Positions 3,073 through 14,812 of a stretch of DNA of 16,336 bases are shown here, piece by piece (the stretch's first letter is position 1; each line of letters starts with the position of its first letter). The notes under the pieces were generated by a model. That model did no database searches. It was given only the letters and a program-made list of their open reading frames with translations, and was not told where the DNA came from. Origin of the DNA: an archaeon (GTDB taxonomy: Archaea; Iainarchaeota; Iainarchaeia; Iainarchaeales; 1-14-0-10-31-34). Made by a program: the position numbers and the translations under genes. The stretch covers positions 1-16,336 of the forward strand of contig JBDRFE010000052.1 in NCBI GenBank assembly GCA_043819075.1, in the 5' to 3' direction.

Positions 3073-4212
3073 ATGGAAAAAATGATTACTGTTGTAGGCG
3101 CAGGACCGGTTGGCTTAAGGGCTGCAATAGGATTAAAAGAACAGGGCTGGGATGTAACAGTATTAGAAGAACACAAGGAAATAGGAACGCCATGCAATTG
3201 CTCTGGATTATTAAGCGCTTCAGGGCTCAAAAAAACAGGAATCCCTTTCTCTGAAGCTGAAGTAAACAAGTTTTACGGCGCAAAAATTTTTTCTCCGGAC
3301 AAAACAATGTTTACTGTACGAAGAAAAGAGCCTGTTGCATTATTGCTTGACAGGGCTGAATTAGACAAAACACTTGAAAAAAAAGCTTTAAGCAAGGGAA
3401 TTGAAATAAGAAAAGAAACAAGAATGATTGATGCAAGAAAAGACACTGTTTTTGTCCAGCACGAAAAAAGAGGGGAAATGCTGAAAACAAGGTTTGTTGT
3501 TGGAGCAGACGGCGCTTCATCTAAAACAAGAAGGCTTGTAATGCAAAAAATTGACCCAACATCTTTTGTCAGGACAATACAAATTACTGCAAAAGGAAAT
3601 TTTGACAAAGACTTGGTTGAAGTTCATGTAGGAGACTTTTGTAAAGGATTTTTTGCATGGATTATCCCTGAAAGCAGTTCAACTGCAAGAATCGGGTTAG
3701 GGGTTAACGGAACGCTTAACTCAAAAGAAGCATTAAACAAGTTTATCAAAGACATGGATTTAGAAGTATTAAATGAATCATATTTTGTTATTCCAATCGG
3801 AAAACCGGTGAAAGACATCCAAAAAGACAATATTTTTTTGGTTGGAGATGCGGCTTACCAGACAAAAGCAACAACAGGCGGAGGAATAATTACCGGAACG
3901 ATTGCAGCAGATGCTTTGGTTAAAACAATTTCAGATAACCTGAAATACAAGAGGCCTTTAACTGATTACTGGAAAAATTTAAGTTCGTTAAACAAGGAAC
4001 TGGAATTGCACTGGAAAGTAAGAAAGTACTTGAATTCCTTGAACGAAAAACAAGTTAATGCATTGTTCAGGAAAATGAAGAAAGCCGGCATGGAAGAATT
4101 TTTGTCAGAGCACGGGGACATGGATTTTCCTTCAAAGTTTGTAAACAAAATGATGCTGTCGCCAAGCAAATGGGGCCTTCTTCCGACAGGATTAAAGTTT
4201 TTGTTCTCATAA
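3073..4212 (+). CDS. Geranylgeranyl reductase family flavoprotein (DGGGPL reductase-like)
   Basis: Rossmann motif VVGAGPVG, PCNCSG, VVGADG, FAWIIP (YxWxFP-like), LVGDAA..TGGGI. 379 aa. Confidence 0.88.
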   Translation: MEKMITVVGAGPVGLRAAIGLKEQGWDVTVLEEHKEIGTPCNCSGLLSASGLKKTGIPFSEAEVNKFYGAKIFSPDKTMFTVRRKEPVALLLDRAELDKTLEKKALSKGIEIRKETRMIDARKDTVFVQHEKRGEMLKTRFVVGADGASSKTRRLVMQKIDPTSFVRTIQITAKGNFDKDLVEVHVGDFCKGFFAWIIPESSSTARIGLGVNGTLNSKEALNKFIKDMDLEVLNESYFVIPIGKPVKDIQKDNIFLVGDAAYQTKATTGGGIITGTIAADALVKTISDNLKYKRPLTDYWKNLSSLNKELELHWKVRKYLNSLNEKQVNALFRKMKKAGMEEFLSEHGDMDFPSKFVNKMMLSPSKWGLLPTGLKFLFS

Positions 4213-4644
4213 TTTTTTCTGCATTTGGACAAAAGCTGTCTGCTTGTATCCCATTTTCTTCCAGAAATCAAATGCTTTTGCTTTAGTGTGGGCAAACAAG
4301 TCAATCACTGCAATATTTTTTTCTTTTGCTGTTTTCTCCAGTTCCAGAACAAGCTTTTCCCCAACATTTTTCCCCCTAAAAGTCTTGTCTACGTAAAGGT
4401 CTTCAACAAAAAGATGTGTTCCGTCATGCCAGATGTAAGTGGCACAAAAAAGCAATCCAATAATTTTTCCGTTTTCTTCAGCAAAAAAAGCAAAATCTTT
4501 TGCCTTGGAAAAAGAATGCAACAATCTTTTTTCTGCATCTTCTTTATTCCATTTCTCAAAATAAGGAGGTTCTGCCATAACCTCAACAAACAAATCCAAG
4601 CCTTTTTTCACTTCTTCAGGATTTTGAATTTTTTTTATCTGCAT
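4207..4644 (-). CDS. GNAT family N-acetyltransferase
   Basis: Acetyl-CoA motif LYVDKTFRGKNVG, plus AEENGKIIG and A..FW.KMGY. 145 aa. Its 3' end overlaps the convergent reductase gene by 6 bp. Confidence 0.88.
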   Translation of the reverse strand: MQIKKIQNPEEVKKGLDLFVEVMAEPPYFEKWNKEDAEKRLLHSFSKAKDFAFFAEENGKIIGLLFCATYIWHDGTHLFVEDLYVDKTFRGKNVGEKLVLELEKTAKEKNIAVIDLFAHTKAKAFDFWKKMGYKQTAFVQMQKKL

Positions 4645-4700
4645 TTAAATCATTCAGTCTTTGAAATATTAATGCTCTATCGCAGATATGGCGACATATT

Positions 4701-4814
4701 TCGTTTCTCGCGAGCGAAATCGCGGCACAGTTTCGGCTGTGCGGTACGACGCACGACGTAAAGTCGTGCTAGCACGGGTTTATCCCGTGCATCGGCACAC
4801 TCGGACGAAAACGA
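4701..4814 (-). ncRNA. Putative structured element (multibranch, three GCAC...GTGC hairpins) in the tRNA 3' trailer
   Basis: GC-rich patch in AT-rich DNA. 7-bp stems at 4725-4742, 4751-4769 and 4772-4790. 4701-4714 is complementary to 4800-4814 (13 bp, two bulges). Whether it acts as RNA is unproven. Confidence 0.45.
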
Positions 4815-4815
4815 G

Positions 4816-4888
4816 TAGCCCCGAGGAGATTCGAACTCCTGTCATCTGCTCCAGAGGCAGACATCCTTGGCCACTAGACTACGGGGCT
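4816..4888 (-). tRNA. tRNA-Gln (anticodon CUG), intronless, CCA not encoded
   Basis: Reverse complement AGCCCCGTAGTCTAGTGGCCAAGGATGTCTGCCTCTGGAGCAGATGACAGGAGTTCGAATCTCCTCGGGGCTA. Acceptor stem AGCCCCG/CGGGGCT with the archaeal Gln A1-U72 pair, anticodon arm TCTGC-CTCTGGA-GCAGA, T-loop TTCGAAT. Confidence 0.96.
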
Positions 4889-4916
4889 AGCGGAAAAATA
4901 ACTAGGTTCAGAAAAT

Positions 4917-4924
4917 TTAATAAA
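4917..4924 (-). promoter_or_regulatory. Candidate TATA box for tRNA-Gln
   Basis: TTTATTAA on the minus strand, 29-36 nt upstream of the mature tRNA 5' end. Confidence 0.45.
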
Positions 4925-4926
4925 CA

Positions 4927-5059
4927 TATTAATGAGCTATCGAATAAAATGAGATAACTCGATGTATTCAGATGCTAACTGGCTGGGCAGTTATTAATGA
5001 GCTATTGAATAAAATGAAATAGCTCGATATATTCGCACACCAACCGAGCGAGACGGTTG
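4927..5059. repeat. Two tandem ~65-nt units (43-nt conserved core plus a covarying hairpin)
   Basis: 4927-4969 and 4992-5034 match at 39/43 nt. Each is followed by a 6-bp hairpin (TAACTG/CAGTTA; CAACCG/CGGTTG). Confidence 0.85.
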
Positions 5060-5061
5060 AG

Positions 5062-5757
5062 CTATTTGCCAAATCTTCTCTGCCTTTCATAATAGTCAGA
5101 GAAAGCCTTGCTCATTTCTTCTTTAGAGAACTCCGGCCAGAATTTTTCACAAAAATACAGTTCAGAGTAAGAGCTTTGATAGGTTAAGAAACCAGACAAT
5201 CTTTTTGTCCCAGAAGTCCTTATAATTAAGTCAGGGTCAATAAAATCAGAGTACAGGAATTTCTTGAAAGATTTTTCATCCAAAGAATCCAGGTCAAGGT
5301 TTTTTTCGTTAAACTGCAATGCAATTTTTTTTGCTGCGTCAACTATTTCTGCCTGGCCGTTGTATCCTAATGCAAGATTAATTGTTTTTTCTTTGTTGTC
5401 TTGGGTTGCCTGCTCTGCTTTCAGAATTTTTTCCCTTGTTTTTTCTGGGAAAGACTCAATTCTTCCAATAAACTTGAGTTTTATTCCGTTAGTGGAAAAA
5501 AATTCAGAGCTGACTACCCTGTCAAGTTCTCTTTCAAAGATTGACAAAAGGATTCTCAGTTCAGCCCTGTTTCTTGAAAGGTTTTCCATTGAAAGAGTGT
5601 AAAACGTGCCAACTTTAATTTTAGGGTAATCTTTCAGCCAATCCAGTACTTCCCAAGCCTTTTGGGTTCCTAACTGATAGGATTTAAGGAAATTAATATT
5701 ATTCAGCAAGGCATATCTTCTATTTCCGTCAGGAATGAAAGCTACAGAATTCAACAT
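5062..5757 (-). CDS. uppS: cis-prenyltransferase (undecaprenyl/polyprenyl diphosphate synthase)
   Basis: IPDGNRR, S.EN..R, LALGYNG..EI, DPDLIIRTSG..RLSGFL.YQ..YSEL.F....WP.F and the C-terminal RRFG motif. Confidence 0.93.
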   Translation of the reverse strand: MLNSVAFIPDGNRRYALLNNINFLKSYQLGTQKAWEVLDWLKDYPKIKVGTFYTLSMENLSRNRAELRILLSIFERELDRVVSSEFFSTNGIKLKFIGRIESFPEKTREKILKAEQATQDNKEKTINLALGYNGQAEIVDAAKKIALQFNEKNLDLDSLDEKSFKKFLYSDFIDPDLIIRTSGTKRLSGFLTYQSSYSELYFCEKFWPEFSKEEMSKAFSDYYERQRRFGK

Positions 5758-13861: not shown

Positions 13862-14812
13862 ATGCCCAAAAAACCTGTTAAACCAAAATCTTTAGGCGGC
13901 GTTGGAAAAAGCGGGGGAACACACGTATTCTATCATCCGATAAAAGTTACAGTTCAGACAAGAAAAACCGCTAAAAAAACTGCTAAACCAAAAGCAGCAA
14001 CAACAAAAAAACCAGCTGCAAAAAAGCCTGTTCCAAGAAAAACAACTGCAAAAACAGGAGCAAAAAAAACAACAGCAGGAAAAAAAACAGCACCGCATGC
14101 ACAAGCGGAAACAGCCCATTCAGATTCTCATTCATCTCATGAAACTGCATCCCATTCAGCTCATGAACACAGGGAAAAAACTGTGCGAGAAATCTTTGAA
14201 GACGAAAGAAAAAAATTTATTGCAGATGAAGCACACAAAAAAGAACACGAATTAAGGGAAAAAATAAGAGACAATTTAAAGCAGGTTGAAGCATTAGAGG
14301 CTGCAGTGAAATTCCAGAAATTCACTATGTTAGTAATAAATGACCATGCATTCAGAAAAAAAATGGGTTTATATTCAATGGATGAAATAAAAAAATTAAA
14401 GAGAAATCCTGCAGAATATGAAAGAGCTAAAGCTGAAGCAAAAAAAAATAATCTTGCATGGGCAAACGACCCTAATTTTCTTAGAGGGCATGAGCCAAGA
14501 ATAGCTGAAATAGAAAGAAGAGCCCCTGAAATGGCAAGAAAAATGAACTGGGAATCAATATTCCAGAAAGCACTAGGAAACAAGTTTGAGGCATTATGGA
14601 AAAGCCTTGGATTACAAAGATTAACAAATATTCCGGTGAATCCATCAAAAGTATTCCAGATAGCTACAATAAGACAATTAAGGGAACATTATGCAAAAAA
14701 ACACTGGCTGATGAAAGCAAACACCCAAATCATTCTTGACAGATACAGGGGAAGGCTTGAATACTGGAAAGAAAAAGAAGCAGAAATGAATAGGTCAAAT
14801 AAAAAAATTTAA
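13862..14812 (+). CDS. Hypothetical basic protein with histone H1-like N-terminus and His/Ser-rich linker
   Basis: 316-aa ORF with genome-typical composition. K/A/T/P low-complexity region, His-rich stretch, then a helical-looking domain. Candidate TATA TTTATTAA at 13826-13833. Confidence 0.75.
   Translation: MPKKPVKPKSLGGVGKSGGTHVFYHPIKVTVQTRKTAKKTAKPKAATTKKPAAKKPVPRKTTAKTGAKKTTAGKKTAPHAQAETAHSDSHSSHETASHSAHEHREKTVREIFEDERKKFIADEAHKKEHELREKIRDNLKQVEALEAAVKFQKFTMLVINDHAFRKKMGLYSMDEIKKLKRNPAEYERAKAEAKKNNLAWANDPNFLRGHEPRIAEIERRAPEMARKMNWESIFQKALGNKFEALWKSLGLQRLTNIPVNPSKVFQIATIRQLREHYAKKHWLMKANTQIILDRYRGRLEYWKEKEAEMNRSNKKI

Follow-up and report, generated by a model that had tools for sequence, protein, structure and literature searches.

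The window (the whole stretch of DNA analysed, 16,336 nucleotides, contig C52) belongs to an archaeal genome of 1.24 Mb that is 90.6% complete and has a GC content of ~34%. Within it, a GC-rich fold sits between the gene for tRNA-Gln(CTG), on the minus strand at 4888-4816, and a GNAT acetyltransferase gene. The repeat feature in the window occupies 4664-4816 and resumes 5′ of the tRNA at 4927-5059. The features are as follows, with bit scores of units given against repeat model R1.

4207..4644, minus strand: GNAT acetyltransferase gene, downstream of the tRNA (PF00583, E 4.8e-16)
4664..4725, minus strand: unit U3, running head-first along the tRNA strand, with its head at 4725-4708, a linker at 4707-4700 (TCG/CGA) and an irregular tail of greater length
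4725..4769, plus strand: unit U2; head 4725-4742, linker 4743-4750, tail hairpin 4751-4769 (64.5 bits)
4770..4771, no strand: TA shared by two tail-to-tail units, the centre of a 92-bp dyad at 4725-4816 (18+8+19+2+19+8+18)
4772..4816, minus strand: unit U1, in the same head-first sense as U3; head hairpin 4816-4799, linker 4798-4791, tail hairpin 4790-4772
4816..4888, minus strand: tRNA-Gln(CTG), no intron, no encoded CCA, discriminator 4816 (ARAGORN; RF00005, 64.1 bits)
4927..4993, minus strand: unit U5, upstream of the tRNA; head 4993-4976, linker 4975-4968, irregular tail (a reading of the sequence; repeat D1)
4994..5059, minus strand: unit U4; head 5059-5041, linker 5040-5033, irregular tail
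5062..5757, minus strand: cis-prenyltransferase gene (uppS-like), the synteny anchor (PF01255, E 3.3e-61)

The head of U1 includes the discriminator base of the tRNA and one inner mismatch, and the unit scores 59.0 bits against R1, which was built with the U1 copy included. In both U1 and U2, the loop bases TCG pair with CGA in the linker. The tail of U3 consists of a worn hairpin (4692-4674) followed by an AT-rich end (4673-4665), which lies 21-29 nt upstream of the GNAT start, a TATA-like spacing, and has a putative promoter role. In the long-tail units (window 4665-4673; C59:30167 and C2:101695), the last part is an AT-rich and TATA-like word located 20-40 nt before the next gene, and these ends may supply or abut promoters. 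Upstream of the tRNA, U5 (loop CAG pairing with linker CTG) falls under the GC filter of the trailer/unit scan and forms a 65-nt tandem with U4. The head of U4 begins 3 nt past the uppS stop, its loop CGC pairs with linker GCG, and a 9-bp direct repeat (4998-5006 and 5058-5066) brackets most of the unit. No terminator was found at the locus.

The GNAT gene occupies the same site in congener G004 but did not turn up in the regions fetched from G001-G003 and G005. Of the 120 uppS-like homologues listed, those with names mostly bear the label Diapherotrites or Iainarchaeum (10), and two are Micrarchaeota, among them the closest named one, at 75%; from this the host is taken to be a DPANN archaeon, probably one of the Iainarchaeota. 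Between the ends of GGR and GNAT (window 4212-4214), a contig from sequencing run X1 is longer by 818 letters, which marks an accessory insertion in a closely related strain. Elsewhere in the window (13862-14812) lies an ORF of 316 aa whose N-terminal part has a long stretch rich in Lys, Ala and Thr, resembling histone H1, and which also contains a His-rich linker.

The fold at 4701-4814

An earlier note, made from the letters of the window, had read positions 4701-4814 as one multibranch fold of three GCAC-based hairpins, closed by an outer stem. The hairpins at 4725-4742, 4751-4769 and 4772-4790, and a fourth GCAC at 4795, are correct in coordinates and sequence, and 4814 is indeed two bases past the discriminator of the minus-strand tRNA-Gln. 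Folded as RNA against 200 shuffles, the stretch gave z scores of -3.76 (plus strand) and -4.22 (minus strand), with 0 and 1 of the 200 equally stable; as DNA it also beat shuffles on both strands (z -4.0 and -4.6). The note's view that this is not a known family was upheld by Rfam 15, which gave no match at this locus by gathering or E-value thresholds (to E 10); here and at 7 other unit loci no family was matched, the only hits being to tRNA, rRNA and sub-threshold noise.

Folding in the pre-tRNA context predicts the outer stem (4701-4714 with 4800-4814) for the tRNA strand, with pair probabilities of 0.54-0.91, but not for the plus strand (at most 0.03). As a conserved feature it did not survive, being predicted in 2 of 41 GC-rich tRNA trailers and in none of the tested orthologous trailers. 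Within the pre-tRNA, neither strand gives the three-way junction that had been drawn between 4744-4750 and 4791-4798 a probability above 0.02; its pairing emerges only when the 92-nt dyad is folded by itself. Moreover, the three hairpins are not of one class. That at 4725-4742 is a head (6 bp, 6-nt loop) which merely happens to begin with GCAC, and the other two are 7-bp tails. Positions 4701-4814 cut across three copies of a ~45-nt repeat and do not make up one new RNA gene. Because the element holds units on both strands, the question of its strand has no single answer.

The idea of one conserved 114-nt multibranch ncRNA or ribozyme, released by tRNA 3′ processing, is already largely refuted, and we regard it as exceedingly improbable. 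It draws on the preference of the outer stem for the tRNA strand at this locus, where 12.5 of the first 16 trailer bases pair over long range. However, orthologous trailers in G001, G003 and G004 score 0.2, 4.1 and 0.0, and congeners carry other units or none. The stem itself is formed by two same-strand members of the repeat family and shuts out the conserved heads and pseudoknots, the linkers that would pair in the junction are random partners, no HDV-like topology was found here and Rfam holds no match. What defines the unit is a covarying pseudoknot, which the note had overlooked.

A unit of ~45 nt with a covarying pseudoknot

The unit is composed of a 6-bp head with a 6- or 7-nt loop, a fixed linker of 8 nt and a tail hairpin that is exchangeable. 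Searched against its own genome, the stretch matched at 48 places, which with the upstream spacer make 37 clusters. Hairpins of the form GCAC..GTGC number 57 in the genome, against 2-6 in five shuffles; among 142 strand-rows of such hairpins, 45 had a second hairpin centred 17-17.5 nt upstream and 38 had a partner across TA. The genome holds 85 strict copies. Of 43 distinct units that were recognised, 42 belonged to fetched loci and entered the alignment. Many units stand single, and heads were found interrupting older heads. There are 25 distinct tail-to-tail dyads, none with identical halves. The linkers and head stems of dyad partners are no more similar than those of random pairs, and their tails match each other less well than random pairs do (12.8 vs 14.1 of 19; 0/5000), which suggests independent joins and loss of perfect palindromes. 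Unit junctions mostly carry 0-3 extra T or A, and the T's may be remnants of a terminator.

Alongside these copies there is an AT-rich class with the same geometry of hairpin and 8-nt linker, with T-tract and A-tract arms and an A-run in the linker. It occurs at many tRNA flanks and introns (for example G000 C8:5586 onward and C60:59742-59869, and loci L049 and L154), and, judging from its tracts, could possibly form a triple helix.

Three bases of the head loop are complementary to linker bases 5-7, predicting a 3-bp H-type pseudoknot. Across the 42 aligned copies, which were picked on the two hairpins alone and not on loop-linker pairing, 125 of 126 pseudoknot cells were paired, a value reached by 0 of 500 shuffles. 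All three pairs show double changes (19, 15 and 9 cells), and slid controls were 23-45% paired. Model R1 contains no pseudoknot pairs but does hold the consensus of loop and linker. When 47 congener loci were searched with it, 73 matches were obtained, of which 48 parsed to the fixed geometry, 46 of them distinct and new; the remaining 25, with longer tails or indels, were left out of the pairing test. In these held-out congeners 120 of 138 cells were paired, compared with a shuffle mean of 89 and maximum of 105. Six of 30 matches from other families could be parsed, and there 16 of 18 cells were paired (84 of 5000 shuffles were as high). Such shuffle tests overstate significance because the copies are related and the model carries their consensus.

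In a head-only scan of 40 loci from other genera, other families and named records, 26 of 63 heads had the pairing at the register, versus 1-4 at four other registers. Among the 348 perfect heads of the genome, 85 had the 3-bp pairing at the exact register; six shifted registers gave 3-12, and three shuffled genomes gave 0-3. Eleven complementary triplet types occur among 78 filtered copies, a diversity that is hard to get without selection on pairing. The stems are near-perfect Watson-Crick helices and fold as DNA on both strands. Mismatches of the G-T and A-C kinds numbered 7 vs 8 in the pseudoknot (counted by hand), 6 vs 5 among 432 cells of the head and 5 vs 13 in the tail, without clear strand bias.

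Placement, distribution and turnover

Fifty-one of the 85 copies lie inside or within 250 nt of the 43 tRNA genes, a zone that makes up 2.0% of the genome and 12.1% of its non-ORF bases. Counted by gene, 27 of the 43 have a unit within 250 nt and 16 do not. tRNA genes were located with a T-arm parser that had been checked against RF00005; most of the 186 calls made by ARAGORN, run at low stringency and allowing introns, were false. Across six genomes, 86 tRNA contexts (44 from this genome plus loci fetched for other reasons, and thus not a random sample) included 29 in which an outward, sense-strand head starts at -1 to +6 of the 3′ end, 14 with a head at the 5′ end on the antisense strand and none with an abutting tail. 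Five heads begin near the 5′ splice site of introns, and units follow the 3′ end of RNase P RNA in three genomes. From the 3′-sense, 5′-antisense and other placements it follows that heads face functional sequence whichever strand is transcribed. Two sets in G000 are in frame within ORFs, at C2:58903-59562, where the head abuts an RGQ motif, and at C29:35674. From sequence motifs, we take the former host to be a pilin-like leader and the latter the C-terminal tail of an NrdD-like ORF.

Some RNA genes in G000 occur twice. There are two RNase P RNA matches (C70:708-1025 and C41:8672-8942), two tRNA-Gly/tRNA-Val clusters (C2 and C36) and an identical tRNA-Leu on C41 and C59; these doubles suggest duplication or strain mixture in the assembly. 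At C9:2061, about 3 kb downstream of tRNA-Glu, there is an orphan copy of the 3′ end of that tRNA followed by a unit, an arrangement that resembles the far end of an integrated island.

Matches to R1 were found in 27 of 61 relatives, with 73, 58, 18, 71, 54 and 32 matches in the genus genomes, and in 44 of 151 genomes of the phylum, where every positive listed belongs to the same order. The fold is kept across at least seven families of that order, and genomes negative for R1 may hold divergent forms of the sequence. Searches with three patterns returned 0 loci on viral contigs; metagenome contigs yielded 5 loci, and genome contigs yielded 4, labelled only ‘archaeon’. At L045 (G037 C1:199800-200000), from another family of the order, three repeats of 85 bp stand in tandem, and every one of them shares 25 identical nt with window 4725-4749.

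The units turn over quickly at fixed sites. The syntenic tRNA-Gln(CTG) carries different units in G001, G003, G004 and G005 and none in G002. The same tRNA end was compared between genomes in 26 pairs, not independent of one another, in which one genome or both had a unit: the unit was present in one genome only in 20, different in 5 and the same in 1. Conversely, a composite of 163 nt is found, 93% identical, behind two unrelated tRNAs. Contigs from four DNA runs were compared with the locus: one from X2 covers 4309-5167 and one from X1 covers 4592-4845, each with 2 differences. Joints that skip the element (4637-4816 in X1 and 4211-4816 in X5), with sides of 30 and 21 letters and a likeness of 85, were rejected as empty alleles.

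The same tRNA gene also varies in other respects. In G003, G004 and G005 (L055, L051 and L056) an ORF of 313-340 aa with a LAGLIDADG domain lies between uppS and tRNA-Gln(CTG), just upstream of the tRNA; for the G003 ORF this assignment rests on a genome-wide LAGLIDADG domain search. In these three genomes the tRNA has an AT-rich intron in the D-loop. Both intron and ORF are missing in the window and in G002, and in G001 the tRNA has an intron in the anticodon loop.

The strong bias towards the ends of stable RNAs fits a host function as well. The units could be host-useful modules of RNA ends, in which a pseudoknot at an end made by RNase Z or RNase P shields leaders and trailers, marks them or aids their processing, perhaps with an xrRNA-like role at a new 5′ end and a TLS-like role at a new 3′ end. 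Since only the fold would matter, units would be exchangeable. In favour of such modules, units are placed exactly at the ends of tRNAs, at intron 5′ splice sites (5 units) and at the 3′ end of RNase P RNA, and the fold is retained between families. However, many tRNA genes lack a unit, most units in the comparisons are confined to one genome and some copies lie within coding sequence. Of 5 genomes, all 5 have RNase P RNA, and transcription reads opposite strands of the unit at the two ends of a tRNA. G-T pairs in the units are rare and unbiased. Most single-strand RNAs differ in this, their G-T (G-U) pairs being neither rare nor unbiased. On balance, we consider host modules of this kind unlikely.

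Less probable again, with low odds in our estimation, is a role at the level of DNA, either as hairpins or cruciforms bound by a host protein or as inserts that block integrases or homing endonucleases at tRNA genes. The near-perfect stems would suit it, as would the abundance of LAGLIDADG domains (28 matches here, and matches in 54 of 61 genomes) and the presence of one just upstream of the tRNA in G003-G005. However, a cruciform in duplex DNA has no need of a loop-linker pseudoknot, LAGLIDADG counts are high in genomes without R1 matches too, and units leave unchanged the body of the tRNA, which is the usual target.

Origin of the copies and relation to known elements

The locus is probably best explained by three stacked copies of a small mobile element that is non-autonomous. 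In this explanation a trans-acting enzyme would recognise the fold, and not the sequence, of a single strand and would attach its head end with precision to a free end, either at the edge of a gene or within an older unit. Copies would persist where they are cut away or harmless, and would then decay; the tolerated sites would be tRNA leaders, trailers and introns, the 3′ end of RNase P RNA, the pilin leader and the protein tail. Those at tRNA ends would be tolerated because tRNA processing discards them. At this locus the pre-tRNA would carry a trailer of three units, which RNase Z would release and which might then fold into the outer stem as a by-product.

For the copying step, our tentative favourite is a polymerase that jumps onto the 3′ end of the pseudoknot strand in the manner of a retroplasmid reverse transcriptase. 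This template jump is placed first because of the TLS-like shape of the unit when read tail-first and because of the 0-3 extra T or A at junctions. One-ended single-strand transposition of the HUH type would be a rather unlikely route, and capture during repair of homing-endonuclease breaks at tRNA genes slightly more so. It is doubtful, though conceivable, that the repeat is a fold-only, ultra-small mobile element without a transposase of known family, whose 26-nt pseudoknot head with a tRNA-acceptor-like 3′ end would be copied by polymerase template jumps. Such an element would jump onto processed ends of tRNAs and stable RNAs or onto their DNA copies, would fold on both strands like a minimal replicon and would build the GC-rich leaders, trailers and long introns of Iainarchaeota tRNA genes.

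A search for the mobiliser gave no candidate among the usual families. Y1 transposase (PF01797) was not found in this genome (90.6% complete) and was found in one of the six genus genomes (G004). A reverse transcriptase is likewise found in one of the six, which is not this genome, IS110 in none, and Y2 in none, the Y2 control having matched 0 of 14 genomes. This genome has a single tyrosine recombinase. Across 61 genomes, none of Y1, reverse transcriptase, tyrosine integrase, IS110, Y2 and LAGLIDADG tracks the load of the element. HUH and reverse transcriptase motifs matched 0 of 2099 ORFs in a search that had no positive control.

Nor is there a consistent mark of insertion. No target duplication was seen for the 29 units abutting tRNA 3′ ends. 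Duplications of the tRNA end of 14-21 nt, reaching the D- or T-loop, were found in 6 of 86 contexts, mostly with AT-rich relatives; five further rows were excluded as neighbouring tRNA genes. Several of these contexts run in the order target, head, linker, inverted target, target, an arrangement which suggests that nick-primed synthesis with fold-back, from a nick in the D-loop, may have taken place. Upstream of tRNAs at L154 (G002), L046, L049 and L050, a copy of tRNA bases 1-15 is followed by an AT-rich head, a linker, an inverted tRNA start and the intact tRNA. A rule that heads are placed 3′ of a helix foot was rejected (4/57, against 62/1500 and 24/228 in controls).

Compared with known systems, the repeat resembles REP, BIME and REPIN sequences in being a short, GC-rich, extragenic stem-loop of many copies that forms mosaics and inverted pairs, sometimes after stop codons, and is probably non-autonomous, as these sequences are outlined in PMC3184786. 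The conserved GTAG-type foot of that outline is absent here, and the bases before head and tail vary (alignment A1). The RAYT/Y1 transposase is missing in five of the six genus genomes and no ORF lies between head-out units, whereas the units have a covarying pseudoknot and a linker fixed at 8 nt, and are targeted head-out to introns and to the ends of tRNAs. As to MITEs, terminal inverted repeats are lacking, as none of the 25 dyads has identical halves and many units are single, and so is a target duplication of fixed length. The earlier suggestion of a REP/MITE-like single-stranded DNA element thus pointed in the right direction, towards a multicopy repeat, but the units depart from REP/BIME and MITE sequences in part of their defining features.

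Mitochondrial palindromes of Neurospora reportedly flank tRNA genes (Yin 1981). Yeast mitochondrial GC clusters (GC42) are also GC-rich palindromes in an AT-rich genome, with constrained structure and rapid gain and loss (PMC4478555). As far as the account in PMC4478555 goes, these clusters and the double-hairpin elements share with our units merging and shuffling, an association with tRNA genes and the lack of a known mobiliser. The present repeat differs in its archaeal chromosome, its pseudoknot unit, its strict mirror orientation and the absence of a fixed dinucleotide target duplication.

Read tail-first, a unit is a hairpin followed by a 3+6-bp pseudoknot, one of the two acceptor-arm combinations (3/3/6) described for viral valine TLSs in PMC7749636. 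The 3′ pseudoknot of 3+5 or 3+6 bp given there is present on the tail-first strand, where the 3-bp and 6-bp helices covary. However, the stack here is 7/3/6, or 16 bp as opposed to 12 bp, the 5-nt loop is unlike a T-loop, there is no anticodon arm or 3′ CCA, and the units are genomic DNA in both orientations. Theta (minimal HDV-like) ribozymes are pseudoknotted elements within a few bases of phage tRNA 3′ ends (PMC10879173), and U1, which begins at the discriminator, falls within the 5 nt from the tRNA 3′ end described for them. Their nested double pseudoknot with a catalytic J4/2 C was not found here, where the pseudoknot is a single one of H type, and units are not limited to 3′ ends, occurring within introns and ORFs as well and, on the opposite strand, at 5′ ends. 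A relaxed HDV-like descriptor, run without a positive control, matched 1 of 86 trailers, which was not the trailer studied here.

The polymerase of the Mauriceville/Varkud retroplasmids is described in 10.1101/792986 as starting on, or jumping to, a 3′ tRNA-like end without complementarity and adding a few untemplated bases. The likeness lies in the model for the copying step and in the few extra bases at junctions; here there is no reverse transcriptase in the genome, no CCA and no plasmid. In the xrRNAs of dianthoviruses and poleroviruses, a pseudoknot ring around the 5′ end blocks 5′-3′ exonuclease, according to PMC7668246. Their topology is only loosely similar (a pseudoknot of 4-5 bp, against 3 bp here), with no Rfam match.

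The repeat works like REP/BIME mosaics and mitochondrial GC clusters, yet it belongs to neither of these, nor to MITEs, theta ribozymes or TLSs. No description of such a repeat in DPANN was found in the literature, where subscription papers were mostly outside coverage, and it seems to be an undescribed kind of genomic parasite. For screens of ncRNAs it carries a warning, namely that strong covariation beside tRNA genes can stem from a repeat family. If the mobile-element explanation is true, streamlined DPANN genomes carry a structure-selected parasite whose mobiliser lies outside the usual families, which would point to an enzyme not yet known or to a host enzyme employed in an unknown way. 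It would also provide a prokaryotic parallel to the unexplained mitochondrial GC clusters, and a testable route for the origin and turnover of the long introns, leaders and trailers of archaeal tRNAs.
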